The notes under the pieces: generated by a model | What the model saw: only the letters and a program-made list of their open reading frames with translations | What the model was told of the DNA's origin: nothing | Database searches by the model: none | Part shown: positions 1 to 62,390 of the stretch, piece after piece | How positions within the stretch are numbered: position 1 is the first letter of the stretch | Layout: the number at the start of each line of letters is the position of its first letter | Program-made: the position numbers and the translations under genes | Source of the DNA: Escherichia coli | GTDB taxonomy: Bacteria; Pseudomonadota; Gammaproteobacteria; Enterobacterales; Enterobacteriaceae | Strand: one strand, 5' to 3' | Assembly (NCBI RefSeq): GCF_030013595.1 | Contig: NZ_CP122771.1 | Length of the DNA: 64,000 nucleotides

Positions 1-1428
1 ATGGCCAGTATCAATACCATTGTGAAACGCAAGCAGTACCTGTGGCTGGGGATTGTGGTTGTCGGTGCAGCCTCCGCGATTGGTGGTGCACTGTATCTGT
101 CTGATGTGGACATGTCCGGTAACGGTGAGGCCGTGGCTGAACAGGAACCCGTGCCGGATATGACCGGTGTGGTGGATACGACCTTTGATGACAAGGTGCG
201 TCAGCATGCCACCACTGAGATGCAGGTGACGGCAGCGCAGATGCAGAAGCAGTATGAGGAAATCCGTCGCGAGCTGGATGTCCTGAACAAACAGCGCGGT
301 GATGACCAGCGTCGTATTGAAAAGCTGGGACAGGACAATGCCGCCCTGGCAGAGCAGGTGAAAGCCCTGGGTGCTAATCCCGTCACGGCGACCGGTGAGC
401 CTGTACCGCAGATGCCTGCCTCACCGCCCGGCCCGGAAGGCGAACCACAGCCAGGAAACACCCCCGTATCCTTCCCGCCGCAGGGCAGCGTTGCTGTTCC
501 ACCGCCGACGGCGTTTTATCCCGGGAATGGTGTCACGCCACCACCACAGGTGACGTACCAGTCTGTGCCGGTGCCTAACCGGATACAGCGTAAGGTGTTT
601 ACCCGTAATGAGGGAAAACAGGGACCATCACTGCCGTACATTCCGTCAGGAAGTTTTGCGAAAGCCATGCTGATTGAAGGAGCGGATGCCAATGCGTCGG
701 TCACCGGTAATGAATCCACGGTGCCGATGCAGCTGCGTATCACCGGCCTGGTGGAAATGCCGAACAGCAAAACGTATGACGCAACGGGATGTTTTGTGGG
801 GCTGGAAGCCTGGGGGGATGTCTCCAGTGAGCGTGCCATTGTACGCACCCGCAATATCAGCTGCCTGAAGGACGGCAAAACCATTGATATGCCGATTAAG
901 GGGCATGTCAGCTTCCGGGGTAAAAACGGTATCAAGGGCGAAGTGGTGATGCGTAACGGCAAAATCCTCGGCTGGGCATGGGGCGCGGGATTTGTTGACG
1001 GTATCGGTCAGGGAATGGAGCGCGCCTCCCAGCCGGCTGTCGGGCTGGGTGCCACCGCTGCTTACGGGGCCGGCGATGTCCTTAAAATGGGTATCGGTGG
1101 CGGCGCATCGAAAGCCGCACAGACGCTCAGTGACTACTACATCAAACGTGCCGAACAGTATCACCCGGTGATACCGATTGGTGCGGGCAACGAAGTGACC
1201 GTGGTGTTCCAGGACGGCTTCCAGCTGAAAACCGTGGAAGAGATGGCGCTGGAACGCACGCAGAGCAGAGCGGAAGAAGACAATCCGGAAAGTCCGGTTC
1301 CTGTTCCGCCATCGGCTGAAAGTCATCTTAACGGCTTTAATACTGATCAGATGCTGAAGCAGCTGGGCAACCTGAATCCGCAGCAGTTTATGTCCGGCAG
1401 CCAGGGAGGGGGCAACGATGGCAAATAA
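1..1428 (+). CDS. traB: TraB, T4SS VirB10-like core protein
   Basis: 475-aa ORF with N-terminal TM helix and Pro-rich linker; matches F/R100 TraB from memory; first gene of the traB-traP-trbD-traV-traR-traC synteny. Confidence 0.9.
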   Translation: MASINTIVKRKQYLWLGIVVVGAASAIGGALYLSDVDMSGNGEAVAEQEPVPDMTGVVDTTFDDKVRQHATTEMQVTAAQMQKQYEEIRRELDVLNKQRGDDQRRIEKLGQDNAALAEQVKALGANPVTATGEPVPQMPASPPGPEGEPQPGNTPVSFPPQGSVAVPPPTAFYPGNGVTPPPQVTYQSVPVPNRIQRKVFTRNEGKQGPSLPYIPSGSFAKAMLIEGADANASVTGNESTVPMQLRITGLVEMPNSKTYDATGCFVGLEAWGDVSSERAIVRTRNISCLKDGKTIDMPIKGHVSFRGKNGIKGEVVMRNGKILGWAWGAGFVDGIGQGMERASQPAVGLGATAAYGAGDVLKMGIGGGASKAAQTLSDYYIKRAEQYHPVIPIGAGNEVTVVFQDGFQLKTVEEMALERTQSRAEEDNPESPVPVPPSAESHLNGFNTDQMLKQLGNLNPQQFMSGSQGGGNDGK

Positions 1429-2312: not shown

Positions 2313-2824
2313 AACAGATTTCTTTATTTATTCCTCTGCTGGGGACCTTATTACTTTCCGGCTGTGCCGGAACCAGTACGGAATTTGAGTGTAACGCCAC
2401 CACATCCGATACCTGTATGACGATGGAGCAGGCCAATGAGAAGGCCAAAAAACTGGAGCAGTCCTCAGAAGCAAAGCCGGTTGCGGTATCACTGCCGCGC
2501 CTGGCTGAAGGGAACTTCCGGACAATGCCGGTGCAGACCGTTACCGCGACCACTCCGTCCGGCAGCAGACCTGCGGTGACAGCACATCCGGAGCAGAAAC
2601 TGCTGGCACCACGCCCGCTGTTTACCGCTGCCCGGGAAGTGAAAACGGTTGTTCCGGTCAGTTCAGTTACGCCGGTAACACCTCCTCGTCCGCTAAGAAC
2701 GGGTGAGCAGACGGCAGCATTATGGATAGCGCCTTATATTGATAACCAGGATGTTTATCATCAGCCATCCAGCGTGTTTTTTGTTATTAAACCGTCTGCG
2801 TGGGGAAAACCACGTATTAATTAA
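2309..2824 (+). CDS. traV: TraV, outer-membrane lipoprotein of T4SS core
   Basis: 171 aa; lipoprotein signal with lipobox LLLSGCAG; synteny. Confidence 0.9.
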   Translation: MKQISLFIPLLGTLLLSGCAGTSTEFECNATTSDTCMTMEQANEKAKKLEQSSEAKPVAVSLPRLAEGNFRTMPVQTVTATTPSGSRPAVTAHPEQKLLAPRPLFTAAREVKTVVPVSSVTPVTPPRPLRTGEQTAALWIAPYIDNQDVYHQPSSVFFVIKPSAWGKPRIN

Positions 2825-2958
2825 CTGGCCCTGAAGTTGTATATCAGCCGGCAATGCCGGCGGGCTTTCTGTATTCAAAATCTGCCTGTAAAACGAGTGC
2901 CCTGTGCGTGAAAAGGGATGGGCGGTAGCGTGTCAGAACATGTCGGGAGGAATATTCC

Positions 2959-3180
2959 GTGAGTGATGAAGCCGATGAAGCATATTCAGTGACAGAACAA
3001 CTGACCATGACAGGAATAAACCGGATACGCCAGAAAATAAATGCTCATGGTATTCCTGTTTATCTCTGTGAAGCATGCGGAAATCCTATTCCGGAAGCCC
3101 GGCGGAAAATATTTCCCGGTGTGATGTTATGTGTTGAATGTCAGGCGTATCAGGAAAGACAGAGAAAACATTATGCATAA
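2959..3180 (+). CDS. traR: TraR, DksA/TraR-family zinc-finger protein
   Basis: 73 aa, GTG start; C4 motif CEACGN...CVEC; position between traV and traC. Confidence 0.9.
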   Translation: MSDEADEAYSVTEQLTMTGINRIRQKINAHGIPVYLCEACGNPIPEARRKIFPGVMLCVECQAYQERQRKHYA

Positions 3181-3339
3181 GTCAGTCGCAGAACATAGTG
3201 ATTTAATTCCGGATGAACATGAGTGGATATTCAGAAAACAGAAATCTTTGTATATGCGCCGGGAAATGGCGCGTTAATTACAGGTATTCCCTTCATGGCT
3301 ACCGCATTTCTCGCTTTATTTTTCAACTAAGGAATTCAT

Positions 3340-5967
3340 GTGAATAACCCACTTGAGGCCGTCACTCAGGCGGTTAACTCCCTCGTCACAGCACTGAAAC
3401 TGCCTGACGAATCCGCAAAGGCCAATGAAGTTCTGGGCGAAATGAGCTTCCCGCAGTTCAGCCGTCTGCTGCCGTACCGTGATTATAACCAGGAATCCGG
3501 TCTGTTCATGAATGACACCACGATGGGCTTTATGCTGGAAGCCATTCCCATCAATGGGGCGAATGAGTCTATTGTGGAGGCGCTCGACCACATGCTGCGC
3601 ACCAAACTGCCGCGCGGAGTGCCGTTCTGCATCCATCTGATGTCCAGTCAGCTTGTTGGTGACAGAATTGAATACGGGCTGCGTGAGTTCTCCTGGTCCG
3701 GTGAACAGGCTGAACGGTTTAACGCCATTACCCGTGCCTATTATATGAACGCGGCAGCGACACAGTTTCCGCTGCCGGAGGGGATGAATCTGCCCCTGAC
3801 CCTGCGCCATTACCGGGTATTCTTCTCGTACTGTTCTCCCTCGAAGAAAAAAAGCCGGGCTGACATTCTGGAAATGGAAAACCTGGTGAAAATCATCCGG
3901 GCGTCGTTACAGGGGGCCAGTATCACCACACAGGCGGTGGATGCACAGGCCTTTATCGATATTGTCGGGGAGATGATTAACCATAACCCGGACTCCCTGT
4001 ATCCGAAAAGACGTCAGCTGGACCCGTATTCTGATCTGAATTATCAGTGTGTGGAGGACAGTTTTGACCTGAAAGTCCGGGCGGATTACCTGACGCTGGG
4101 CCTGCGTGAGAACGGCAGGAACAGCACGGCCCGCATCCTGAATTTCCATCTGGCCCGTAACCCGGAAATCGCCTTTCTGTGGAACATGGCCGACAACTAC
4201 AGCAACCTGCTGAACCCGGAACTGTCCATCTCCTGTCCGTTCATCCTGACGCTGACTCTGGTGGTGGAAGACCAGGTGAAAACTCACAGCGAAGCCAACC
4301 TGAAGTACATGGACCTGGAGAAAAAGTCGAAGACCTCCTATGCCAAATGGTTTCCGTCCGTGGAGAAAGAGGCGAAGGAGTGGGGGGAACTGCGTCAGCG
4401 GCTGGGCTCCGGTCAGTCCTCTGTCGTGTCCTACTTCCTCAACATCACAGCATTCTGCAAGGACAATAATGAAACGGCGCTGGAAGTGGAGCAGGACATC
4501 CTGAACAGCTTCCGTAAAAACGGTTTTGAGCTGATTTCACCGCGCTTTAACCACATGCGCAATTTCCTGACCTGTCTGCCCTTTATGGCCGGGAAAGGGT
4601 TGTTTAAACAGCTGAAAGAGGCCGGAGTGGTACAGCGCGCAGAGAGCTTTAATGTGGCCAACCTGATGCCGTTAGTGGCGGATAACCCCCTGACACCGGC
4701 AGGTCTGCTGGCACCCACCTACCGTAACCAGCTGGCGTTTATCGATATTTTCTTCCGGGGGATGAATAACACCAACTACAACATGGCGGTCTGTGGCACC
4801 TCCGGGGCCGGTAAAACCGGGCTGATACAGCCACTTATCCGCAGCGTGCTGGACTCCGGGGGCTTTGCCGTGGTGTTCGACATGGGGGATGGCTACAAGT
4901 CCCTGTGTGAGAACATGGGCGGGGTGTATCTGGACGGTGAAACCCTGCGTTTTAACCCGTTTGCGAACATCACCGATATTGACCAGTCAGCGGAGCGTGT
5001 CCGCGACCAGTTGTCGGTGATGGCCAGCCCCAACGGTAACCTGGATGAAGTGCATGAAGGTCTGCTGCTGCAGGCGGTCAGGGCCTCCTGGCTGGCTAAA
5101 AAGAATAAGGCGCGCATCGATGATGTGGTGGATTTCCTGAAAAACGCCCGTGATAACGACCAGTATGTAGAGTCACCGACTATCCGCAGCCGTCTGGACG
5201 AAATGATTGTGCTGCTTGACCAGTACACTGCTAACGGCACTTATGGCCAGTATTTCAACTCCGATGAGCCGTCCCTGCGGGATGATGCGAAAATGGTGGT
5301 GCTGGAGCTGGGCGGACTGGAAGACCGTCCGTCCCTGCTGGTTGCGGTGATGTTCAGCCTTATCATTTACATTGAGAACCGGATGTACCGCACGCCGCGT
5401 AACCTCAAGAAACTGAACGTTATTGATGAAGGCTGGCGTCTGCTGGACTTCAAAAATCACAAGGTCGGTGAATTTATTGAGAAAGGCTACCGTACGGCCC
5501 GCCGTCATACCGGTGCCTATATCACCATCACACAGAACATCGTCGACTTTGACTCTGATAAGGCCTCCAGTGCTGCCCGCGCGGCATGGGGTAACTCCTC
5601 CTACAAAATTATCCTCAAACAGAGTGCGAAGGAGTTCGCGAAATACAACCAGCTGTATCCGGACCAGTTCCTGCCACTGCAGCGCGACATGATTGGTAAG
5701 TTTGGTGCAGCCAAAGACCAGTGGTTCAGTTCCTTCCTGCTGCAGGTGGAAAACCATTCCTCCTGGCACCGTCTGTTTGTGGACCCGTTAAGCCGCGCCA
5801 TGTACAGCTCTGACGGCCCGGATTTTGAGTTTGTGCAGCAGAAGCGTAAAGAGGGGCTGAGTATTCATGAGGCAGTGTGGCAGCTGGCGTGGAAGAAGTC
5901 AGGGCCGGAGATGGCTTCGCTGGAAGCCTGGCTGGAAGAACATGAGAAATACAGGAGTGTGGCATGA
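3340..5967 (+). CDS. traC: TraC, VirB4-like T4SS ATPase
   Basis: 875 aa, GTG start; Walker A GTSGAGKTG; synteny. Confidence 0.95.
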   Translation: MNNPLEAVTQAVNSLVTALKLPDESAKANEVLGEMSFPQFSRLLPYRDYNQESGLFMNDTTMGFMLEAIPINGANESIVEALDHMLRTKLPRGVPFCIHLMSSQLVGDRIEYGLREFSWSGEQAERFNAITRAYYMNAAATQFPLPEGMNLPLTLRHYRVFFSYCSPSKKKSRADILEMENLVKIIRASLQGASITTQAVDAQAFIDIVGEMINHNPDSLYPKRRQLDPYSDLNYQCVEDSFDLKVRADYLTLGLRENGRNSTARILNFHLARNPEIAFLWNMADNYSNLLNPELSISCPFILTLTLVVEDQVKTHSEANLKYMDLEKKSKTSYAKWFPSVEKEAKEWGELRQRLGSGQSSVVSYFLNITAFCKDNNETALEVEQDILNSFRKNGFELISPRFNHMRNFLTCLPFMAGKGLFKQLKEAGVVQRAESFNVANLMPLVADNPLTPAGLLAPTYRNQLAFIDIFFRGMNNTNYNMAVCGTSGAGKTGLIQPLIRSVLDSGGFAVVFDMGDGYKSLCENMGGVYLDGETLRFNPFANITDIDQSAERVRDQLSVMASPNGNLDEVHEGLLLQAVRASWLAKKNKARIDDVVDFLKNARDNDQYVESPTIRSRLDEMIVLLDQYTANGTYGQYFNSDEPSLRDDAKMVVLELGGLEDRPSLLVAVMFSLIIYIENRMYRTPRNLKKLNVIDEGWRLLDFKNHKVGEFIEKGYRTARRHTGAYITITQNIVDFDSDKASSAARAAWGNSSYKIILKQSAKEFAKYNQLYPDQFLPLQRDMIGKFGAAKDQWFSSFLLQVENHSSWHRLFVDPLSRAMYSSDGPDFEFVQQKRKEGLSIHEAVWQLAWKKSGPEMASLEAWLEEHEKYRSVA

Positions 5968-9603: not shown

Positions 9604-11450
9604 AACGTATGTTACCTCTGATACTGGCTCTGGTTGCCGGCATGGCACAGGCTGACAGCAACAGTGATTACCGGGCCGGTTCTGATTTTGCTCACCAGAT
9701 CAAAGGACAGGGAAGCAGCAGTATTCAGGGCTTTAAGCCACAGGAGAGTATCCCCGGCTATAACGCGCATCCGGACGAGACAAAATATTACGGTGGCGTG
9801 ACTGCCGGCGGGGATGGCGGCCTGAAAAATGACGGCACCACGGAATGGGCGACCGGTGAAACCGGAAAAACCATCACAGAGTCCTTCATGAACAAGCCGA
9901 AAGACATTCTTTCACCGGATGCACCGTTCATTCAGACCGGCAGGGATGTGGTGAACCGGGCTGACAGCATTGTGGGAAACACAGGCCAGCAGTGTAGTGC
10001 ACAGCAGATAAACCGCAGTGAATTCACAAACTATACCTGTGAACGGGACACGATGGTGGAGGAGTATTGCACACGGACTGCCAGGATCACCGGAGACTGG
10101 AAATACACAGATGAATATCGTGAGGTGACGATACCGCACTCACAGTTCCGGTTCAGTATGAACGGGCTGAAACTGGTGTTCAGTGTCACGGCTCCGGTAA
10201 CCGGTACAGTGGAAAGTGCATCATTGTCTGTATACGCCGCTTTTTTCTTCCTGAACTCTCGTTATACCTTCATGAATTCAACGTTCAATGTTGGCCTGGT
10301 AAACGGGCAGTCGGGTACTTTCCCCCTGTCCGGGGCGACAGGTTTGCAGGTGACACAAGGGCAGGTTCTGACCGGCAGTGGCTGTACTGCTAACGGTAAC
10401 TGTCTTTCTGGCGGGAACGGTGACCGACAGGTTTATGAGAAACTGGCCAGCGGCGCGTCCACCTTTACACTGAAACTCAGGATGAAGGTCCGTGATAAAG
10501 AATGGGTTCCACGGGTGGAGTGGGTGGAGAGTTGTCCGTTTAATAAAGCGGATGGCGTGCTGAAAGGCACTGAGTGTTCAGAGCCGGGTGGTACGAAAAC
10601 TGGTGTGATGGAAGGTAAACCCTGGAGCATCACACAGGCGTGCTGGGCATACCGGGATAAATATGTCACACAGTCCGCAGATAATGGTACCTGTCAGAAA
10701 TATGTCGATAATCCGGCCTGTACGCTGGCCTCACGTCAGTGCGCGTTTTATTCCGATGAGGGAACCTGTCTGCATGAGTATGCCACGTACTCCTGCGAGT
10801 CAAAAACATCAGGAAAAGTGATGGTCTGTGGTGGTGATGTCTTCTGCCTTGACGGTGAATGCGATAAGGCGCAGAGCGGAAAAAACAGTGATTTTGGTGC
10901 AGCCGTATCACAGCTGGCTGCGCTTGCCGCTGCTGGTAAGGATGTTGCCGCCCTGAATGGTGTGGATGTCAGGGCTTTCACCGGCGAGGCGAAATTCTGC
11001 CGTAAGGCCGCAGCCGGCTTCAGTAACTGCTGTAAGGATGGTGGCTGGGGTCAGGATGTGGGTCTGGCGAAGTGTAACAGTGAAGAAAAGGCGCTGGGAA
11101 AGGCAAAGGACAACAAACTGACGGTGAGTGTTGGCGAGTTCTGTTCGAAAAAGGTACTCGGTGTCTGCCTGCAGAAAAAGCGCAGCTACTGCCAGTTTGA
11201 TTCGAAACTGGCGCAGATAGTCCAGCAGCAGGGGCGTAACGGGCAGCTGCGTATCGGGTTTGGCAGCGCCAAAAGTCCTGACTGTCGTGGAATAACCGTG
11301 GATGAACTGCAGCGTATTAAGTTCGACCAGCTGGACTTCACTAACTTCTACGAAGACCTGATGAATAACCAGAAAATCCCGGACAGTGGTGTTCTGACGC
11401 AGAAAGTGAAAGAACAGATTGCTGACCAGCTGAAACAGGCAGGACAGTAA
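9600..11450 (+). CDS. traN: TraN, outer-membrane mating-pair stabilisation protein
   Basis: 616 aa, signal peptide, Cys-rich C-terminal region; synteny. Confidence 0.9.
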   Translation: MKRMLPLILALVAGMAQADSNSDYRAGSDFAHQIKGQGSSSIQGFKPQESIPGYNAHPDETKYYGGVTAGGDGGLKNDGTTEWATGETGKTITESFMNKPKDILSPDAPFIQTGRDVVNRADSIVGNTGQQCSAQQINRSEFTNYTCERDTMVEEYCTRTARITGDWKYTDEYREVTIPHSQFRFSMNGLKLVFSVTAPVTGTVESASLSVYAAFFFLNSRYTFMNSTFNVGLVNGQSGTFPLSGATGLQVTQGQVLTGSGCTANGNCLSGGNGDRQVYEKLASGASTFTLKLRMKVRDKEWVPRVEWVESCPFNKADGVLKGTECSEPGGTKTGVMEGKPWSITQACWAYRDKYVTQSADNGTCQKYVDNPACTLASRQCAFYSDEGTCLHEYATYSCESKTSGKVMVCGGDVFCLDGECDKAQSGKNSDFGAAVSQLAALAAAGKDVAALNGVDVRAFTGEAKFCRKAAAGFSNCCKDGGWGQDVGLAKCNSEEKALGKAKDNKLTVSVGEFCSKKVLGVCLQKKRSYCQFDSKLAQIVQQQGRNGQLRIGFGSAKSPDCRGITVDELQRIKFDQLDFTNFYEDLMNNQKIPDSGVLTQKVKEQIADQLKQAGQ

Positions 11451-11473
11451 AGCAGGGAAAATAACCGGGGAAA

Positions 11474-11734
11474 ATGATGAAGGTCATATTCACTTCTAAT
11501 CGTATTGTTGATTTTATTATCCGGCTTTTGATTACAGCGATTGTCATTTCTCCGGTAATTATCTGGTCGTGGGATACGGTAAAAGAAACCACGGCAGACG
11601 GGATGCTTGCCGCTGCTTTCGTTATCCTTTACTCCGGTGTGCTCCTGTTTATTCTGTATTTTTGTTTTTCTGCCCTGACTGACCTGCAGAAACCTGATGA
11701 AAGAAAAAGTGATGAAAGGAATGAAGATGAATAA
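11474..11734 (+). CDS. trbE: TrbE
   Basis: 86-aa membrane protein matching F TrbE. Confidence 0.75.
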   Translation: MMKVIFTSNRIVDFIIRLLITAIVISPVIIWSWDTVKETTADGMLAAAFVILYSGVLLFILYFCFSALTDLQKPDERKSDERNEDE

Positions 11735-12470
11735 AGCATTACTGCCACTGTTACTCTGCTGCTTTATTTTTCCGGCGTCAGGAAAAGATGCAGGCTGGCA
11801 GTGGTATAACGAGAAAATAAATCCGAAGGAAAAAGAAAATAAACCTGTACCTGCAGCCCCCCGTCAGGAACCGGATATTATGCAGAAACTGGCCGCACTG
11901 CAGACGGCAACAAAGCGGGCGCTGTACGAAGCCATTCTGTATCCCGGCGTGGATAATTTTGTGAAATATTTCCGGCTGCAAAATTACTGGACTCAGCAGG
12001 CCGGGCTTTTCACCATGAGCGCCAGAAAGGCCATGCTGGCGCATCCCGAACTGGACTATAACCTGCAGTACAGCCATTACAACGGCACGGTCCGGAACCA
12101 GCTGGCGGCAGACCAGGCGCAGCAGCGACAGGCCATTGCGAAACTGGCTGAACACTACGGCATCATGTTTTTTTACCGGGGGCAGGACCCCATCGACGGG
12201 CAACTGGCGCAGGTCATTAATGGCTTCCGGGATACGTATGGTCTGAGTGTTATTCCCGTTTCCGTGGATGGCGTGATTAATCCGCTGTTGCCGGATTCCC
12301 GGACTGACCAGGGGCAGGCGCAGCGCCTCGGCGTGAAATATTTCCCGGCCATGATGCTGGTTGACCCGAAACAGGGCAGTGTTCGCCCGTTATCATACGG
12401 CTTTATTTCGCAGGACGACCTGGCAAAACAGTTCCTGAACGTTTCTGAAGATTTTAAACCCAATTTTTAA
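11727..12470 (+). CDS. traF: TraF, thioredoxin-fold pilus assembly protein
   Basis: Starts MNKALLPLLLCCFIFPASG as in F TraF; ORF extends upstream to 11697. Confidence 0.9.
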   Translation: MNKALLPLLLCCFIFPASGKDAGWQWYNEKINPKEKENKPVPAAPRQEPDIMQKLAALQTATKRALYEAILYPGVDNFVKYFRLQNYWTQQAGLFTMSARKAMLAHPELDYNLQYSHYNGTVRNQLAADQAQQRQAIAKLAEHYGIMFFYRGQDPIDGQLAQVINGFRDTYGLSVIPVSVDGVINPLLPDSRTDQGQAQRLGVKYFPAMMLVDPKQGSVRPLSYGFISQDDLAKQFLNVSEDFKPNF

Positions 12471-12485
12471 TCGCGGATTTGATTT

Positions 12486-12833
12486 ATGAGTGAAGATTAT
12501 TTGAAAATGTTTACAGGTGTTGTTCTGTTAATATTTGTCATTATTGCCGGTTATTTCTTTTCTGAGCGTAATGACAGGAAAATGTTTCTCCTGAGCTCAC
12601 TGGTTTTCCTTGTTATTAATATCGCGTGTTTATATGTGCTTACCGCCAGTCTCTGGTTTCTGTGTGGTGCAATTATGAGTCAGGGCGCAGCACTGGTTGT
12701 TTCAATAGTTGCGGCCGCATTACCGGACGTTACGAGCTTCGACAGGTTCAGAAGAATATTTATCTGTATTATGTTGTCATCGGTATGGTCCGGAGTGATG
12801 TGGTTTTTTATAAGGGGGCTTATGACAGGCTAA
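12486..12833 (+). CDS. trbA: TrbA
   Basis: 115-aa polytopic membrane protein; synteny. Confidence 0.7.
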   Translation: MSEDYLKMFTGVVLLIFVIIAGYFFSERNDRKMFLLSSLVFLVINIACLYVLTASLWFLCGAIMSQGAALVVSIVAAALPDVTSFDRFRRIFICIMLSSVWSGVMWFFIRGLMTG

Positions 12834-12888
12834 GTCATATAAAACGGTCATAAAAACCATACAAAATAATGAGGTTGATTACTGAAGA

Positions 12889-13149
12889 TCATATGATAAA
12901 CCATACCGCAATCCAGTGGCTTCTGAATAGCTCGCAAAAATAAATATAGATAATTGAAAATAACCATAATACAACGATGCCTGCTGCGATACTTAATAAA
13001 CTTATTACAAGATAGTCAGGGAAGGCATTGACCGGTAATGAATGTGATGCTGCATATATCAGCGCAATAATTGCCGCATTTCCCAGTAACGACTCTCTTA
13101 TTATGTTTCTGATTATTTCCAGTTTTTCTTTAAAAGATCGCTTTTCCAT
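12889..13149 (-). CDS. artA: ArtA-like membrane protein, antisense within tra operon
   Basis: 86-aa minus-strand ORF between trbA and traQ, the position artA occupies in F; AT-rich. Confidence 0.5.
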   Translation of the reverse strand: MEKRSFKEKLEIIRNIIRESLLGNAAIIALIYAASHSLPVNAFPDYLVISLLSIAAGIVVLWLFSIIYIYFCELFRSHWIAVWFII

Positions 13150-13229
13150 TTGTACCTCTGATTAATATCACACAAACGCGAATATTACAGACATGAATAC
13201 TCTCATGTAAATAATAACCGGAGTTTAAC

Positions 13230-13514
13230 ATGATAAGTAAACGCAGATTCTCTTTACCCCGGCTTGATATTACGGGAATGTGGGTATTTTCCCTGGGTGT
13301 CTGGTTTCATATCGTCGCCCGTCTTGTTTACAGCAAACCCTGGATGGCTTTTTTTCTGGCGGAGCTGATTGCGGCCATCCTTGTGCTGTTCGGCGCATAC
13401 CAGGTGCTGGATGCATGGATTGCCCGTGTCAGCCGGGAAGAGCGTGAGGCACTGGAAGCCAGGCAACAGGCCATGATGGCAGAGCAGCAGGAGGGCGGAC
13501 ATGTCTCTCACTAA
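13230..13514 (+). CDS. traQ: TraQ, pilin chaperone
   Basis: 94 aa starting MISKRRFSLPRLDITGMWVF, matching F TraQ. Confidence 0.85.
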   Translation: MISKRRFSLPRLDITGMWVFSLGVWFHIVARLVYSKPWMAFFLAELIAAILVLFGAYQVLDAWIARVSREEREALEARQQAMMAEQQEGGHVSH

Positions 13515-14046
13515 ATTACTGCCGGTCATTTTGTTGATGATGGCCACAGGTGTGCAGGCCTCCACCCGGGATGAAATTGAACGACTCTGGAATCCGCAGG
13601 GTATGGCCGCGCAGCCTGCACAACCGGCAGCAGACACATCAGCCAGGACAGAAAAGCCGGCTCCCCGCTGGTTCCGCCTCAGCAACGGCAGGCAGGTTAA
13701 CCTGGCCGACTGGAAGGTGGTGCTGTTTATGCAGGGGCATTGCCCTTACTGCCACCAGTTTGACCCGGTACTGAAGCAGTTGGCACAGCAGTACGGCTTT
13801 TCCGTTTTTCCCTACACCCTGGATGGTCAGGGGGATACCGCCTTTCCGGAAGCATTACCGGTGCCACCGGAGGTGATGCAGACCTTCTTCCCGAATATCC
13901 CGGTGGCCACACCGACCACCTTCCTGGTCAACGTCAACACGCTTGAGGCATTACCGCTTTTACAGGGGGCAACGGATGCCGCCGGTTTTATGGCGCGGAT
14001 GGATACCGTTCTGCAGATGTACGGAGGAAAAAAAGGTGCGAAATAA
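13501..14046 (+). CDS. trbB: TrbB, thioredoxin-like disulfide isomerase
   Basis: 181 aa, signal peptide, CPYC active site. Confidence 0.85.
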   Translation: MSLTKLLPVILLMMATGVQASTRDEIERLWNPQGMAAQPAQPAADTSARTEKPAPRWFRLSNGRQVNLADWKVVLFMQGHCPYCHQFDPVLKQLAQQYGFSVFPYTLDGQGDTAFPEALPVPPEVMQTFFPNIPVATPTTFLVNVNTLEALPLLQGATDAAGFMARMDTVLQMYGGKKGAK

Positions 14047-45364: not shown

Positions 45365-45592
45365 TACAGAGGCAGGCGGTGGAGGCCGCCTGTCAGCCCG
45401 CGCGAAAACCCCTGGCAGGCTGGCGCCTGCCGGAAGGGAAGCGGGCCACGCTGGCGCGTCGCCCGTTACCCTTCCCGTTTGTGATGTGTCCGGAATGTTT
45501 TTTTCTGATGGTATGACCCTGTTCCTGTTGTTGTTGTTGTTCTTTTCTCTGCTGCCCTGATTCTGACTACTGCAGTGTTGTCCTGTCTGCCT

Positions 45593-46165
45593 GCGCACCT
45601 TCGGCTCCCGGCTGCCTGGCGGCATCCGGTCGTCAGGCCCGACTCCGACAGGCAGCTGCTGGCGCACCCGCCAGTCTCCGCCGAACCCGCTGGCGCGGTT
45701 TCGGGCTGTCGCTACGGTCCGATGCGTGAAAACCCCGGGCTTGCAGCGACCGTTCCGGTCGCGCCACCCTTGTCGCGCCGTGGCCTGCGCTCCCGGCATC
45801 CCGGCAAAAGGCCGCCGGGATGTAAGGCGCAACGCCGTTTCGCGCACGCGCTCTCCGTCGTTGCGGCGGGTCCCTGCTCATTGCCTGCCGGGTGCCACAC
45901 ACCCGTATGAGTCCCTGTCGCCGGGGGCTGATACAGCCACAACCTGCCGCACTGACTGTCCAGGGTAAATGAACAGCCCACAAAATTTTTTACCCAAAAC
46001 CCGGTAAAAAATTTTGCGTTCTGCCCGGGACAGGTGCGTCAGGCCGTGGCAGTGATGCCCCTTGCGGCGAAGGTTCTCAAACGGGTGAAGTTCATACCAC
46101 AGGGAATACAGCAGCAGGTTCCCGCGAAACGTCAAAACCGCGGCTCCCGAAACTCAACGGGTGAT
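45593..46165 (+). repeat. Frpo-like leading-region repeat, copy 1 (hairpin 45979-46018)
   Basis: About 570 bp GC-rich unit also at 49012-49465 and 59340-59925; 14-bp perfect stem caaaattttttacc/ggtaaaaaattttg. Confidence 0.8.
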
Positions 46166-46395
46166 GTTCTTTAAAAATCAGGATTTATTTCAGGCTCCGG
46201 CAATATGCATTTATTTGTTCTGTCAGTCATCCGGCTGGCAGGTAATGAGAACGCAGGAACAGAAGGAGGAAAACACCGGAGAACGTCAGACGCAGATATG
46301 AAAAAAGCAGGTCAGGGACCTGCTTAATCCACACCGCAGAGACTGCACGAACAGTCTTTACGGTTTCATTAATTAACGTCATAAGAGGCTAAATT

Positions 46396-48649: not shown

Positions 48650-48830
48650 AGACGCCGGGCAGGCGGGAGGATAAATGCCTGTCTGTCCGCGCCGGGAAAA
48701 GACCGCGCGCCGGTGGCGCTGAAAGGGGCCGCGCTGACGCGCCGCCCCTTTCATTACGCGGACGTTCTGACGGGGGCTTCTGTCTTTTCAGACCTGTCAT
48801 TTGCCTGTTACTGATGATGTTGTTGTTCCT

Positions 48831-48866
48831 GCTACTGCTACTGCTACTGCTACTGCTACTGCTACT
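48831..48866. repeat. Hexanucleotide microsatellite (gctact)x6
   Basis: Direct reading; related (gtt)x5 run at 45523-45542 in the equivalent position before Frpo-like copy 1. Confidence 0.85.
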
Positions 48867-49011
48867 GTTCTTCTTTTTTCTGATGCTCTCATTACTGTCT
48901 GTTTTGTTGTTCTCCTGCTTATGCCTTTTCCGGGCGTCCCCCTGGCGGGGCGGGCTGTCGTGAACGGAGCCAGCGAAGCTGTCTCCGCCCTGGCGGGCTT
49001 CCATCCCTGAC

Positions 49012-49465
49012 GCCAAACCCCCTGGCTTGCAGCGACCGTTCCGGTCGCGCCGCCTCTGTCGCGCCGTGACCTGCGCTCCCGGCATCCCGGCAAAAGGCCG
49101 CCGGGATGTGAGGGGCAACGCCGTTTCGCGCACGCGCTCTTCGTCGTTGCGGCGGGTGCCTGCCCGTTGTTGTATCCGGTGCCCTGCACCCGTTTAAGCC
49201 CCTGTCGCCGGGGGCAAAGACAGCCACAACCGTCTCCGCCAGTCCAGGGGTGAAATGCACATCCCACAAAAGTTTTTGCCCAAAAGCCGGCAAAAACTTT
49301 TGTGGTCTGCCCCCGGACAGTCGTTTCCGGCCGTGGCAGTGATGCCCCTTGCGGCGAAGGTTCTCAAACGGGTGATGGTTAATACCGGAGGGAACAAACG
49401 GCAGGTCCCCGCAAAACGTCAAAACCGCGGCTCCCGAAACTCAACGGGTGATGGGGGCTGAAAAC
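49012..49465 (+). repeat. Frpo-like leading-region repeat, copy 2 (hairpin 49264-49305), immediately upstream of ssb
   Basis: Perfect 17-bp stem ccacaaaagtttttgcc/ggcaaaaacttttgtgg; unit ends at ssb RBS. Confidence 0.8.
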
Positions 49466-53566: not shown

Positions 53567-55138
53567 TTACTGAGAGGTCAGATCAACTTTCCAGGGCAAC
53601 AGATCGCGTACCCGGTTTGCCGGCCAATCCTGGATATGCTCAATGACGTAACGCAGCCATTTTTCTGGTTCCACATTGTTCAGACGGCATGTGCCGATCA
53701 GCGAGTACAACACCGCCGCATGTTCGCCACCGCTGTCGGAACCCGCGAAGAGCCAGTTTTTCCGGCCTACGGCCACTCCCCGTAAGGCGTTCTCTGCGAT
53801 GTTGTTGTCGATTTCCACCCAGCCATTACTGCAGTACACGTTCAGGGCCTCCCACTGTTTCAGCAGGTATGCGAACGCTTTTGCCGTATCCGAGTGACGC
53901 GACAGTGTTTTCATCTGTTCCTGTATCCAGTCATACAGTGACTGCATCAGTGGAGCCGCTCTGGCTTTTCTTGCTGCCAGACGCTGTTCTGCTGAACATC
54001 CCCGGACTTCTGCCTCGATGACATACAGTTCACCGATACGCTGCAGGGCTTCCGTGGTGATGTCGGTTGGCACTCTTGCATGCACATCGTGGATTTTTCT
54101 CCGGGCATGGGCCATACACGCGGCTTCCGTTATTCTGCCGGATTCGTATAACGCCCGGTAACCACCGTAAGCATCTGCCTGAAGCACACCGCTGTAACCG
54201 GCCAGGTGATTCTGTGGATGGATACCTTTCCGGTCCGGGCTGTACGCGAACCAGACCGCCGGGGGCATCTGTGAACCGGCGTTACGGTCATCACGGACAT
54301 AGACCCACAGCCGGGCAGTTCTTGTTTTACCACTGCCCGGCTCCTGGACCGGAACGGGGATATCATCCGCATGGACTTTACCGGGCATCAGCACATACTG
54401 GCGCAGCACGTCATACAGCGGCTCCAGCAGTTCAGCAACGGCACCGGTCCAGCGCCCCAGCGTGGCGCGGCTCAGTTCCACGCCCTGACGAAGGTATATT
54501 TCTGACTGGCGGTATAACGGCAGATGGTCTGCATACTTCCCGGTGACGATATGAGCCAGAAGCCCCGCTCCGGCATAACTGCGTGCAATGGGTTTTGAAG
54601 GTACTGGTGCCTGCACGATATGGTCGCACCGGCAACAGGCCAGTTTCGGACGTTGTGTTTCGATAACCTTAAAAGCGCTGCTGATAAGCTCCAGTTGCTC
54701 TGACACATCACACCCCAGAGGACTGAGGTCACCACCACAGGCCGGGCAGCATTCCTCTTCCGGCCGGATGACCCGGGTTTCACGGGGAAGTGAGGCCGGT
54801 AACGGCTTACGGGCTGAAGACTGGCGCAGGGCGGATGGCAGTACCGGGTCATATTGCTCATCCAGCGTTTCCGCCATTTCTTCCTGAAGTGCGCTGATTC
54901 GCTCCTGGGCTTCCTGTATCTGCCGTTCGGTTTTAGCGCGAAGTTTTTCTGAGCTTTTACCGAACTGCATGCGCTGCAGTTTCGCAACCAGCGCCTTCAG
55001 CCGGTTGATTTCGGAAGCATAAGCCGCCACCCGCTGTGAGAGCAGGCGGTTGTATTTCGCCATCTGGCGGATGGTGTCCTGTTGCGTCTGCAACAGTGCC
55101 CGCAGGCGGGCATTCTCATGAGCAAGTGAGGTGTCCAT
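53567..55138 (-). CDS. IS66-family transposase (OrfC)
   Basis: 523 aa with N-terminal coiled coil, CxxC...CxxC zinc motif and DDE-type core. Confidence 0.9.
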
Positions 55139-55157
55139 ATCCTCACTTTACAACGGG

Positions 55158-55505
55158 TTATATGCGGATGCCAGCGCGTTCCGTTCGTTTCGGGTGCTTC
55201 CAGTCGATGCCTTCGAGAAGCATGGACAACTGAGCCGGAGTAAGGTGAACCTTTCCATCGCGGGTGACCGGCCAGACGAAGCGGCCCCGCTCCAGGCGTT
55301 TGGTGAAGAGGCACAGTCCGTCACTGTCAGCCCACAGCACTTTTATCTGGTCACCCCGGCGTCCGCGGAAGATGAACAGATGCCCGGAGAACGGGTCATC
55401 CTTCAGGACGTTCTGAACTTTTGAGGCCAGGCCGTTAAAGCCATTTCGCATATCGGTGATACCGGCAACCAGCCAGATACGCGAACCGGCAGGGAGAGAT
55501 ATCAT
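55158..55505 (-). CDS. IS66 OrfB (TnpB-like accessory protein)
   Basis: 115-aa ORF with the conserved IS66 OrfB-like N-terminus. Confidence 0.85.
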   Translation of the reverse strand: MISLPAGSRIWLVAGITDMRNGFNGLASKVQNVLKDDPFSGHLFIFRGRRGDQIKVLWADSDGLCLFTKRLERGRFVWPVTRDGKVHLTPAQLSMLLEGIDWKHPKRTERAGIRI

Positions 55506-56155
55506 CAGTGGCTGCTCCCTTTCATTTCGCGGATAAGTGTCTGTAATAACGCCGGTGTCAGTTCACCTTTCAGCCTGAGAGTTCCGGCCGGCAGAACCAG
55601 CTCGCAGCACAGACTGTCTGGCAGTGTATTTATCTGTTCAGGTATCTGCACTGGTGCCGGGATTTTATTATCCGGCTCCGGAGTTAACGTCACGGGAAGT
55701 AGCGATGTTTCATGTTCGCCGGGCGGTTGCAGGCCACCGTTACGCCAGAGATGCCGCCAGTTAAAGAGCAGGTTATCGTTAATTCCATTCTCTCGAGCTA
55801 TTTGTGCGACACAAGCACCGGGTAAAAGAGTTTGCTGAACCAGTCTCCATTTAAACTCCGGTGAAAATCGGTTCCGGCGGGGTTTCTCTGCTTTCACAGG
55901 CTGAGTCACGGTCGGGGCTGAAGGGTATCGCCCCGGGAAAAGAGCCCGGGCCAGTTGCCCGCAGGAATATTCACCGGAAAGAGGCCAGTCAGTGAATACC
56001 TGGTGAAATCGCCTCACCAGAGAAAAAATGGCGGTTTTGCTGACACCGGTCTGCGCAGAAATGCGCGGGTACGACAGTGACTCGTCAAATCTCAGCTGTA
56101 GCACACGCAGGATCAATTCCGGATTGTCTGCCAGTACCGCTTTTCGTGCATTCAT
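55505..56155 (-). CDS. IS66 OrfA-like HTH protein
   Basis: 216-aa ORF start-overlapping orfB; longer than typical OrfA. Confidence 0.7.
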   Translation of the reverse strand: MNARKAVLADNPELILRVLQLRFDESLSYPRISAQTGVSKTAIFSLVRRFHQVFTDWPLSGEYSCGQLARALFPGRYPSAPTVTQPVKAEKPRRNRFSPEFKWRLVQQTLLPGACVAQIARENGINDNLLFNWRHLWRNGGLQPPGEHETSLLPVTLTPEPDNKIPAPVQIPEQINTLPDSLCCELVLPAGTLRLKGELTPALLQTLIREMKGSSH

Positions 56156-56683: not shown

Positions 56684-56994
56684 CAACCTGGAGGCGGGCG
56701 CAGGCCCGCCTTTTCAGGACTGATGCTGGTCTGACTACTGAAGCGCCTTTATAAAGGGGCTGCTGGTTCGCCGGTAGCCCCTTTCTCCTTGCTGATGTTG
56801 TACGGGCATGAACAACCTGACTTCAGGAAGGTCGTTTCCCTTCAGGAACGGGGATGAACGCGCGCCTGCGGCGCCCGTTCTTTTCCCCCGCCTTCTCTGG
56901 TTATGGCCTGTCAGAAATCACATCACCTTCCCTGTGATTATTCTCTTTTTCTTCCTGCTCTGATTCTGACTACTGCAGTGTTGTCCTGTCTGCC

Positions 56995-59339
56995 GGGTCG
57001 GGTAGCAGCGGCACATTGCTGCGCCGCCGCCCCCTAAGAACGGAGCGTGCGAGTTTTCCCGCACTCCGCTCAAGCCTTTATAAGTGCTTTCGGTGAGCAC
57101 CGGCTTCCCTGCTGTGTAACTGTCGGTGGCAGTTCGGATGTAACAACTCGAGATTGGTCAGTTCGTCACTGCCGCCCATAACTTTCCTGATCCGGTGATG
57201 TATATTCCATCCGGTCTGGTTGGTTATGAGTTGTCCGCACTGCGGACAGTGTTTCCCCTGCCTCTTCCAGAGTTGAACTACTGTCTTCATCTTCTTTGAT
57301 TTGCCTTTCCAGATTAGATCCAGACGACGTTCAAAGTAGATTTCCATTCCGGGGGTGTATGGTGTTGCTTCGCCTTTGATTTTTATATGGCGCTTTATCG
57401 GTGTTTCCATTGCCCGGAAGAGTGTCAGAATTTTCCCTTCCGGGGTTATGGCTTTAAAGATCCAGCGCCTGCCTTCAAAGGAGAAGTATCGTCCGGCGAT
57501 CCACCGCAATCCTTTCCGGGGATGCCGTCTTACACACCATCGCCATATAGCTCGCCAGATTTGGGTGTCGACATAATTAAATGTTTCTTTCGCCACGACG
57601 TGTCGGTGATAGGTAGCCCATCCCCGGATCACCGGGTTTAGCTGGCCTATCAGTTTCCATGCCGGGAGCGTCGGATTGCGTTTAATTATTTCTCTGACTT
57701 TACAGAGGAAGTTCTTCAGGTTTTTCTTCGACGGTTTAATCAGCATTTTACCGTTGTACTTCCTGACGTTCTGCCCTAAAAAGTCGAAGCCTTTATCTAT
57801 ATGTGTGATCGCTGTTTTTTCTTCCGACAGTTCCAGCCCTCGTTCGCGCATGAAAGCTGCAATCAGTGGTCTGACCTCATTTTCCAGCAATTCACGGGAG
57901 CTGCCTGAACAGATGAAATCATCAGCATATCTCACATAATTCACCTGGTGCTTTGCACTGTGATAACCACTTTTCCTGAACGTTTGCATCAGTTCCTTCT
58001 CCAGTCCGTCCAGAGCCATGTTGGCGAGAACAGGGGATATGATGCCTCCCTGCGGTGTCCCGCTGTTCGTATGGTTAAACACGCCTCTTTCCATGTAACC
58101 TGCTTTCAACCATTTTTTAAGCAGTCTCCTGTCCATCGGAATATGGGAAAGCAGCCAGTCATGGCTGATGTTATCGAAACACCCTTTAATATCGCCCTCC
58201 AGTATCCATTTGGGCGATACTTTCTGGCTCATCCGCAGAAAAATGGACTCAATGGCGTCATGCGTGCTGCGCATTGGTCTGAAACCATAGCTGTTATGGT
58301 CAGCAGTGGTCTCGGATACGGGTTCCAGAGCCAGCAGCCACAGTGCCTGCATGGCCCGGTCCCTCATTGTGGGTATGCCCAGCGGTCGCGTTTTGCCGTT
58401 TGATTTTGGGATATGTATTCGCCGTAGTGGCTGTGGCCTGTAACCACACAGATTCAGGCTGCATATTCCTTCCCATTTCTCCTTCGGTGTGTGCCATATT
58501 TTTCCGTCAATACCGGGTGTCCTTTTACCGGTATTTTCAGTTACACGCCTGACAGCCACGGCTTTGCCGGAGAATGAGCGGGTGAGGATGCGCTGTAGTT
58601 CTCTGACCTGCCGCCATTGTTGCTGTCGGGTTGCCTTTGCAATCCGTAACTGTAGCTTTCGCACCCGGGCATGGCATGCTTTCCAGTTTATGGTGTGCCA
58701 GCCTGTCGGGTGGGGTATCGTGGACACACTGATGTGTGTATTCATCTCGCTGATATCCTTTTGACTGCTTTACAGCTTTTCATGCAATTAAAGACCAGAC
58801 GGAAGTCTGCCCGCTTTCGCGTCGGGGAACCTGCCCCGTATCCCGGTTATTACGGCCGGGCATTCGCTTTTTCCGTCCTCCTATGCCCGCACCGCTAACA
58901 GTGTTCCTTGCGGTTCACCTGCCTGTGAGGCAGCGATACGGGTTTACCAGGTTCCGCTTAACATACAGAGGGTCAGGGCGGGTTCTGTCTCTTCACCGGG
59001 GGTCTCTGCGCCCATGTGCTCCCTGTGCGCGAGGTAGCAACCGGACCCCGTACCTTTTGGTTCAGGCCTGTCAGCATCTTTGGCCTGTTGCCGATAACGG
59101 TGTTTATCAACAGTTCACATGTGTTAACCCTTCTGACCAGCCTTGCTCTCCTGCCGCATGATGCTTGCAGCAAGGTAAAGCCCCTCACGGGGCTTTACCC
59201 GGGCTGACGCCCGGCTCTCGTTGTCCCGGGAGCTTCAGACCCCGCCGTTGCCGGCAACGCCTGTCCCGGTAGGCTACAGCTAATGGGATAGCTGGTTTTA
59301 TCAATGTAAAACAATACGTTAAGCGACTTCCTGTCGCAC
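56995..59339 (-). mobile_element. Group II intron, boundaries +/-10 bp
   Basis: 5' end GTGCGACAGG on minus strand; domain V-like hairpin GAGCGGAGTGCGGGAAAACTCGCACGCTCCGTTC near 3' end (+ coords about 57030-57063); encodes RT/maturase/HNH ORF. Confidence 0.8.
57078..58745 (-). CDS. Group II intron-encoded reverse transcriptase/maturase with HNH endonuclease
   Basis: 555 aa; RT motifs incl. YADD (VRYADDFIC); C-terminal CPQCG...H..H HNH. Confidence 0.9.
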   Translation of the reverse strand: MNTHISVSTIPHPTGWHTINWKACHARVRKLQLRIAKATRQQQWRQVRELQRILTRSFSGKAVAVRRVTENTGKRTPGIDGKIWHTPKEKWEGICSLNLCGYRPQPLRRIHIPKSNGKTRPLGIPTMRDRAMQALWLLALEPVSETTADHNSYGFRPMRSTHDAIESIFLRMSQKVSPKWILEGDIKGCFDNISHDWLLSHIPMDRRLLKKWLKAGYMERGVFNHTNSGTPQGGIISPVLANMALDGLEKELMQTFRKSGYHSAKHQVNYVRYADDFICSGSSRELLENEVRPLIAAFMRERGLELSEEKTAITHIDKGFDFLGQNVRKYNGKMLIKPSKKNLKNFLCKVREIIKRNPTLPAWKLIGQLNPVIRGWATYHRHVVAKETFNYVDTQIWRAIWRWCVRRHPRKGLRWIAGRYFSFEGRRWIFKAITPEGKILTLFRAMETPIKRHIKIKGEATPYTPGMEIYFERRLDLIWKGKSKKMKTVVQLWKRQGKHCPQCGQLITNQTGWNIHHRIRKVMGGSDELTNLELLHPNCHRQLHSREAGAHRKHL

Positions 59340-59925
59340 GCGCACCTTCGGCTCCCGGCTGCCTGGCGGCATCCGGTCGTCAGGCCCGACTCCGACAGGC
59401 AGCTGCTGGCGCACCTGCCAGTCTCCGCCGAACCCGCTGGCGCGGTTTCGGGCTGTCGCTACGGTCCGATGCGTGAAAACCCCGGGCTTGCAGCGACCGT
59501 TCCGGTCGCGCCGCCTCTGTCGCGCCGTGGCCTGCGCTCCCGGCATCCCGGCAAAAGGCCGCCGGGATGTAAGGCGCAACGCCGTTTCGCAAACCGCGCT
59601 TCACGTCGTTGCGGCGGGTCCCTGCCCGTTGTTGTGTCCGGTGCCATTCACCTGTTTAAGCCCCTGTCGCCGGGGGCATAGACAGCCACAACCGTCTCCG
59701 CCAGTCCAGGGGTGAAATGCACATCCCGCAAAACTTTTTGCCCAGAAGCAGGCAAAAACTTTTGCGGTCTGCCCCCGGACAGTCGTTTCCGGCCGTGGCA
59801 GTGATGCCCCATGCGGCGAAGGTTCTCAAACAGGTGATGGTGAATACCGGAGGGAACAAAAGGCAGGTCCCCGCAAAACGTCAAAACCGCGGCTCCCGAA
59901 ACTCAACAGATGATGGGGGCTGAAA
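59340..59925 (+). repeat. Frpo-like leading-region repeat, copy 3 (hairpin 59726-59767)
   Basis: Stem ccgcaaaactttttgcc/ggcaaaaacttttgcgg; unit ends at RBS of 59948 ORF. Confidence 0.8.
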
Positions 59926-61989: not shown

Positions 61990-62390
61990 TCTGGTGACTT
62001 TATCCGTAAATAATTTAACCCACTCCACAAAAAGGCTCAACAGGTTGGTGGTTCTCACCACCAAAAGCACCACACACTACGCAAAAACAAGTTTTTGCTG
62101 ATTTGCCTTTTAAATCATGTAATTAACAAATGCTATTTATATTTAATAATTCTGAATTATTAAATAGAGAGTCGTTGGCGATCCTGTTACGACCCTATAG
62201 CGACCCTTATTAGGATCAGTACTGACAATTTTCATGAAAAACATTGATATATATTAGGGGCGCCACTAGCGCCGGATCGCATTTTTTTATAGGATGATCC
62301 TAGAGGCGCTGCTAGGAGTGTCTTTCTTACTTGTAAACACTATATGCATATTTATAGTGAAAAGTTCATTGCTTAATTATGAAAGGTTTT
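61990..62390. promoter_or_regulatory. oriT (origin of transfer) with nic region about 62060-62080 on the minus strand
   Basis: Reverse complement of 62030-62082 reads GTAGTGTGTGGTGCTTTTGGTGGTGAGAACCACCAACCTGTTGAGCCTTTTTGTGGAGTGGG, near-identical to the F/R100 nic region as remembered. Confidence 0.8.

Follow-up and report, generated by a model that had tools for sequence, protein, structure and literature searches.

The DNA analysed here, a 64,000-nucleotide stretch of Escherichia coli sequence that we call the window, is that of an F-like conjugative plasmid, with Rfam matches to FinP/traJ, CopA, two sok RNAs and several tra antisense RNAs. The leading-region genes lie on the plus strand from about 44 kb to 61 kb, in the order DUF1380, a 231-nt ORF, DUF3560, methyltransferase, ssb, psiB, psiA, hok/sok and ygeA/ygeB-like, and are followed downstream by oriT and then by traM and traJ. 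The nic-region motif of oriT (GTAGTGTGTGGTGCTTT) is found on the minus strand, which identifies this as the transferred (T) strand; the binding sequences of the intron described below lie on this strand too. An IS66-family element encoding TnpA (216 aa), TnpB (115 aa) and a transposase (523 aa) is inserted in the leading region between psiA and hok/sok (53567-56155, minus strand).

Three Frpo-like cores of about 440 bp are present in the leading region, all of them 82-97% identical to Frpo1/Frpo2 of plasmid F. Upon entering as a single strand, Frpo sequences fold into a promoter for the early leading-region genes; the Frpo hairpin of F reconstitutes -35 and -10 boxes and drives transcription from single-stranded DNA (PMC9849209). 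A long hairpin is likewise predicted on the minus (T) strand of copy 1, at about 45898-46087 (-177.6 kcal/mol; ssDNA fold z = -6.1). The cores of copies 1 (45.6 kb) and 3 (59.3 kb) form part of a repeat of about 620 bp, which is laid out as a 49-nt arm, an insertion point, a target module of about 137 nt and the core itself, and both target sites of the intron lie at the outer edge of this repeat. The intron target is outside the Frpo core, at the outer end of the adjoining module, and this module is absent from plasmid F and from copy 2. Short tandem repeats adjoin the repeat units, with (GTT)5 at site 1 (45529-45545) and (GCTACT)n at copy 2 (48830-48870); the latter is the variable 6-bp yddA repeat described in the F33 plasmid papers.

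When target-type and F-type repeats are compared (window 45585-45730 against 48990-49015 and against positions 13440-13563 of plasmid F, sequence L126), homology is lost no more than about 4 nt from the insertion point and picks up again after about 137 nt. The whole module on the 5'-exon side thus acts like an alternative cassette, with the insertion site as its boundary. An 8-bp inverted repeat (GCTGCCTG/CAGGCAGC) lies near the target on the T-strand, at -64 and -26; the search for a local target hairpin on this strand found that the minimum-energy fold does not use this inverted repeat consistently.

The two target sites share both of their halves. The left half at 45557-45591 (ctgattctgactactgcagtgttgtcctgtctgcc) has one further exact copy in the window, at 56960-56994 (35/35 nt), and the right half at 45593-45611 (gcgcaccttcggctcccgg) has one further exact copy, at 59340, where the exact match runs for 76 nt. 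BLAST extends the homology on the left to 49 nt (45543-45591 against 56947-56994, 94% identity) and on the right to 595 nt (45581-46166 against 59329-59915, 88% identity). In 64 kb, chance cannot account for matches this long. At the second place the halves are separated by a 2,343-nt group II intron on the minus strand (56997-59339), while a third, partial copy of the right-hand repeat, at 49015-49453, is without the intron target. An earlier note on this DNA had read 45557-45611 as an unoccupied copy of the insertion sequence of this intron, with flanks homologous to those at 56960-56994 and 59340, and alignment of the junctions bears out both statements. The junction that it gave, 45591/45592, is one base off; the true insertion point lies between 45593 and 45592. 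The t at 45592 is not common to the two sites, but stands in place of the gg (56995-56996) found beside the intron at the filled site; the halves are thus not joined canonically at the empty site. The features of the locus are collected in Table 1.

Table 1. Features of the intron, its target sites and the Frpo-like repeats in the window.
Feature	Position	Strand	Remarks
3'-exon side of empty site, shared left arm	45543..45591	-	49 nt, 94% identical to 56947-56994; last 35 nt exact
Variant base, +1 of would-be 3' exon	45592	-	A on intron-sense strand for canonical CC
IBS1 GTGCGC (-6 to -1), empty site	45593..45598	-	perfect complement of EBS1 GCGCAC; same as filled site
IBS2 GCCGA (-13 to -9) and IBS2a (A at -14), empty site	45601..45606	-	IBS2 complement of UCGGC, intron nt 246-250
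Target module (5'-exon side, about 137 nt), Frpo-like copy 1	45593..45729	-	one difference from 59340-59476 over -1 to -137
Frpo-like core copy 1	45730..46166	-	92% to F Frpo2, 82% to F Frpo1; upstream of 231-nt ORF, DUF3560, methyltransferase
Frpo-like core copy 2	49015..49453	-	upstream of ssb, as Frpo2; F-type upstream module (48862-49014), no intron target
3' exon of filled site	56947..56996	-	starts with canonical CC (56996-56995); same as intron-free orthologues L129-L131
Group II intron, 2,343 nt, IIB1/CL1, EcI5-related	56997..59339	-	5' GUGCGACAGG ... CUACCCGAC 3'; Rfam; ends homologous to those of EcI5
Intron-encoded protein, 555 aa, intact	57078..58745	-	RVT_N, RVT_1, maturase (GIIM), HNH endonuclease, all E <= 2e-9; YADD present
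EBS1 GCGCAC, intron nt 310-315	59025..59030	-	pairs with 5' exon -6 to -1 (putative)
EBS2 UCGGC, intron nt 246-250	59090..59094	-	pairs with 5' exon -13 to -9 (putative)
EBS2a, U upstream of EBS2, about intron nt 243-244			pairs with A at -14 (putative)
5' exon/target module of filled site	59340..59476	-	compared with 45593..45729
Frpo1-like core copy 3	59477..59915	-	97.5% to F Frpo1; upstream of ygeA-like (59948) and DUF932/ygeB-like (60242); gene order as in F
oriT nic-region motif	62064..62080	-	2 mismatches to F motif; between SLT gene and traM

Anatomy of the intron and its canonical target

The Rfam models RF00029 and RF02012 match the intron with 55.2 bits over 56997-57073 (gathering score 40) and 121.7 bits over 59146-59295 (gathering score 34), and its boundaries, GUGCG...CCCGAC, agree with the conserved 5' GUGYG and 3' AY. 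The 3' end was placed by aligning EcI5 of pO157 through its published critical positions (C-18, C-17, A-15, A-14 and T+5); EcI5 ends ...CUACCCGAU/CGUAU, which puts the 3' end of the present intron at ...CCCGAC (a slash marks the boundary or insertion point here and below). The length of the element equals that of the 2,343-bp intron of pHN7A8. EBS1 and IBS1 match in 6/6 and EBS2 and IBS2 in 5/5 Watson-Crick pairs, with EBS1, EBS2 and EBS2a at positions homologous to those of EcI5, and we infer the pairing roles of these elements from sequence. A covariation check on EBS1 used the exon change at -4 in the comparison sequence L127; EBS1 shows no compensating change there, and the pairing gains no support from covariation. 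A search of the minus strand upstream of 59339 found no promoter for the intron.

The intron of the window differs from the widespread variant at 21 positions, one of which gives L506P in the HNH domain (codon 506, window 57230); at the protein level, two residues distinguish it from the common variant. Nine of the nucleotide differences cluster in the ribozyme at nt 413-492 (window 58848-58927); these clustered changes may be compensatory. An intact ORF and unaltered EBS1 and EBS2 would favour use of the empty site by this intron; the 21 differences, with L506P among them, and the negative promoter search speak against it.

On the intron-sense (minus) strand the filled sites of the window, of L003 and of the two copies in L002 all read ...CCGAAGGTGCGC/GUGCGACAGG...GCUACCCGAC/CCGGCAGACAG, and the canonical target is GGTGCGC/CCGGCAG. 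This is also the sequence, on the intron-sense strand, of the 'intron-naive' signature in the supplement of the FII-33 plasmid paper, which describes a 2,343-bp intron. In L129-L131 the hok/sok-side site is intron-free and reads ...GGTGCGC/CCGGCAGACAGG..., with CC at the junction and a flank identical to that of the window. By this comparison, the filled site of the window is the L129-L131 sequence plus a precise insertion of 2,343 nt (56997-59339). The earlier note had taken the presence of a filled and an empty site in the window as direct evidence of the insertion event. The two do coexist; however, they are paralogues 11 kb apart rather than one locus before and after insertion, so that their coexistence is indirect evidence only. 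On the sequences compared, the direct evidence is that of the intron-free orthologues L129-L131, with which the FII-33 'intron-naive' signature agrees. The sequence L001 was rejected as an intron-free reference; it carries the rarer C allele, and the resulting 1-nt discrepancy, a single C, was settled by the FII-33 naive signature and L129-L131.

Occupancy varies between plasmids. In L003 and the FII-33 plasmids the intron lies at the orthologue of 45592 (site 1), between DUF1380/a 63-aa ORF and the 231-nt ORF. L002 carries the intron at two of its repeats; one copy is reported at site 2, and one copy of L002 also counts among those at the position orthologous to 45592. The same 2,343-nt variant (0 differences) is found at different sites on different plasmids. 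In an IncI plasmid under experimental evolution, a putative group II intron formed a new junction in the region of ssi3, the Frpo2 homologue (PMC10104558). For the present intron, the support for retrohoming is comparative.

Two further occurrences of the intron deserve mention in their own right. In L135 the site-2 intron is split by an IS3-family element, so that its 5' and 3' ends lie 3.66 kb apart (10014-13690). The 6.5-kb contig139 of an assembly labelled 'Streptomyces morookaense' (NZ_JABBXF010000139.1, L014:320-2700) bears this intron with its filled 5' junction. The copies in L002, L003 and L128 match it at 100% identity, and its presence in this assembly is almost certainly due to contamination.

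Junction of the empty site and its alleles in PLSDB

The 5'-exon recognition elements of the empty site (IBS1, IBS2, IBS2a and the distal bases) are those of the occupied sites, and the 76 nt upstream are identical. The partner of IBS2 aligns position for position with EBS2 of EcI5, and the U upstream of it aligns with EBS2a of EcI5. It is at the junction that the site departs from the canonical target. On the intron-sense strand it reads GGTGCGC/AGGCAG (GGTGCGC/AGGCAGACAGG), with a single A for CC at +1/+2; position +1 (IBS3) is consequently A, not the canonical C, and the 3'-exon register from +2 to about +10 is shifted by 1 nt. The change from CC to A would remove a presumed G-C pair between EBS3 and IBS3; we infer which base EBS3 is, and hence a G-A mismatch at +1, because C is the canonical base there and EcI5, too, has C at +1. 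A Watson-Crick EBS3/IBS3 pair was retained in all (100%) of the targets invaded by the IIB intron RmInt1 (PMC4075523), and T+5 is critical in the target of EcI5. With +1 changed and the 3' exon shifted, these requirements lead us to expect a lower efficiency at the empty site, and we take the copy in the window to be a genuine homing site that is probably weakened.

The frequency of such junctions was determined by megablast in 72,556 PLSDB plasmids, using queries whose arms left and right of the junction were each <28 nt, so that a hit could be seeded only by the exact junction. The canonical CC junction is empty at 4,621 places in 2,302 plasmids and filled at 1,002 places in 892 plasmids, which amounts to about 18% of places; IBS3 is C at these roughly 1,002 filled and 4,621 empty places. 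The C allele is empty at 71 places (64 plasmids) and filled at 9 (9 plasmids), or about 11%. The A allele of the window is empty at 133 places (131 plasmids) and filled at 2 (2 plasmids), so that about 1.5% of its places are filled, 2 of 135, in counts that are not phylogenetically independent. In the four A-type plasmids sampled, A always occurs at site 1, while sites 2 and 3 both have CC; this points to a single site-1 lineage, and the difference between 2/135 and 18% could reflect ancestry rather than efficiency. Most intron-bearing plasmids have one copy (946 places in 842 plasmids), and the canonical CC sites are mostly empty too; emptiness alone says little. The suggestion of the earlier note that the empty copy is a potential target for further retrohoming remains plausible given that the orthologous position is occupied in L003 and the FII-33 plasmids, although it has to be qualified by the A in place of CC, an allele rarely filled in PLSDB.

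The two plasmids with occupied A-type sites, L127 and L128, have precise ...CCCGAC/AGGCAG junctions and contain different intron variants, one common and one divergent. The A allele can thus be invaded and is not a block, and these sites point to one real invasion at the least, and probably to two. Both plasmids have lost the interval between Frpo repeats; the intron now links the A-type flank of site 1 with the ygeA/DUF932 context in L127 and with the ssb context in L128 (positions 2600-5300 in each). The repeats, or intron copies within the repeats, appear to mediate deletions of the leading region. The occupied site of L127 also carries a T-to-G change at -4 in its 5' exon, inside IBS1 and uncompensated in EBS1 (2655-2684); the change appears to have arisen after insertion and would be harmful to splicing or re-homing.

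Interpretation of the empty copy

The sequence identity of the two sites, the anatomy of the intron, the orthologous empty and filled sites and the allele frequencies are observed directly. We propose, with a probability of about 0.8, that the homing site of an EcI5-related IIB1 (CL1) intron is present at 45557-45611 as a paralogous, unoccupied copy, and that this copy is a genuine but probably weakened target. In this model the intron RNA-protein particle would recognize the minus strand, which is the transferred strand, through pairing of EBS1 with IBS1 (-6 to -1), EBS2 with IBS2 (-13 to -9) and EBS2a with IBS2a (-14), a single EBS3-IBS3 pair at +1, and contacts made by the protein. The RNA would then reverse-splice between -1 and +1, the HNH domain would nick the other strand, and the reverse transcriptase would copy the intron. 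The empty site retains all of the 5'-exon elements, and the cost of having A for CC would be the loss of the EBS3-IBS3 pair and a one-base shift of the 3' exon.

The same substitution could instead have abolished reverse splicing or second-strand cleavage altogether, making the site dead or immune, either as a relic or as an escape allele. The contrast between A-type sites (133 empty and 2 filled) and CC-type sites (4,621 empty and about 1,002 filled) is in keeping with this, as is the coexistence of the intron with an empty A site both in the window and in L135. The selections with RmInt1 point to an absolute need for a Watson-Crick EBS3/IBS3 pair (PMC4075523), and the 1-nt shift alters the 3' exon from +2 on, where EcI5 has its critical T+5. 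However, the allele counts are confounded by shared ancestry, and the two occupied A-type sites, with their precise ...CCCGAC/AGGCAG junctions and their common and divergent variants, are difficult to reconcile with a site that cannot be entered; we regard a dead or immune site as unlikely. A different objection is that the intron may have spread by homologous recombination or gene conversion between the Frpo repeats of about 600 bp, rather than by retrohoming, in which case the empty copy would be a substrate for recombination. Such recombination clearly happens, as seen from the deletions between repeats in L127 and L128; the repeats are 82-97% identical over >400 bp, and the F-plasmid literature calls the Frpo copies recombination substrates. 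As an account of how the intron spread we nevertheless find it highly improbable. The left arm is only 49 nt long, the junctions are base-precise at every site, and EBS1 and EBS2 match the flank perfectly; moreover, the occupied A-type sites keep their own +1 allele beside the intron, as expected of retrohoming and not of conversion from a CC donor.

A more far-reaching joint reading can be framed, which we consider decidedly unlikely as a whole. It would make the intron a lineage specialized for the module welded to Frpo, one that might invade incoming single-stranded plasmids with nascent complementary DNA as the primer. The target is on the T-strand, oriented such that in the recipient the synthesis of the complementary strand would reach it from the 3'-exon side, so that invasion of the single strand might occur. 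The CC-to-A change at site 1 would then be an escape variant on the side of the plasmid. The 137-nt module, one boundary of which coincides with the insertion point, might have spread with the intron.

Relation to known introns and implications for F-like plasmids

EcI5 (E.c.I5; IIB1/CL1), from the E. coli O157:H7 plasmid pO157, has the same ribozyme layout and the same ends, GUGCGACA... and ...CUACCCGA followed by U or C. EBS2, EBS2a and the EBS1 loop are at homologous positions in the two introns, the target has A at -14 and C at +1 in both, and both encode a protein with reverse transcriptase, maturase and HNH domains. In contrast, the proteins are 56% and the RNAs about 67% identical, and the EBS1 and EBS2 sequences are different. 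The distal 5' exon of the present intron has C-18, G-17 and G-15 where EcI5 has C-18, C-17 and A-15, and +5 is C here and T in EcI5. In pO157, EcI5 lies behind sopB and is oppositely oriented, and the target of the present intron is missing from that plasmid. We therefore rejected the identification of the present intron as EcI5 itself on the grounds of protein identity, location and target. No formal name in the Zimmerly database, such as Kl.pn.I5, was found for it. Plasmid p62 (NZ_CP023354.1, L132:22290-24014) carries a second, EcI5-like intron with a 574-aa protein directly behind the DUF1281 gene. EcI5 occupies the same position in pO157, which suggests a conserved homing site on F plasmids for EcI5 as well.

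The 2,343-bp intron of the FII-33 (F33:A-:B-) plasmids, exemplified by pHN7A8, agrees with the present one in length, junctions and target, and its intron-left, intron-right and intron-naive signatures match the junctions of the window except for flank SNPs. It occupies site 1, the orthologue of 45592, whereas the intron of the window is at site 3, on the hok/sok side, and site 1 is empty and carries the A allele. The FII-33 papers use the intron as a sublineage marker, and paralogous targets, Frpo and target alleles are not discussed there. That the intron and the naive site serve as lineage markers of F33 plasmids is thus already known. In the part of the literature that was searched, we found nothing on the repetition of the target beside Frpo promoters, on its location on the transferred strand or on natural alleles of the insertion point.

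With respect to Frpo1/Frpo2 (ssi) of F and ColIb-P9, the cores in the window agree with those of F in sequence, in lying upstream of the same genes and in the predicted long hairpin on the T-strand, and differ in that the intron target is in an adjoining module of ~137 nt that F lacks. The choice of a multicopy, conserved and non-essential target in mobile DNA, filled and empty within one replicon, is shared with E.c.I4 in IS3-family elements and RmInt1 in ISRm2011-2. In those cases the target is a transposase gene, whereas here it is a non-coding repeat beside a conjugation-specific promoter; unlike RmInt1, the present intron keeps its En domain.

These findings are modest additions to a well-understood kind of element and do not overturn its current understanding. 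For the window itself, they explain the repeat and identify a second landing pad for a mobile intron. More widely, the target is present in two or three copies, beside promoters of early expression, on thousands of F-like resistance and virulence plasmids. The presence of the intron in at least 842 PLSDB plasmids makes it a useful lineage marker and a possible driver of leading-region deletions between repeats, and the CC, C and A alleles found in nature form a series suited to gauging how far a IIB1 intron depends on a single base pair with the 3' exon.
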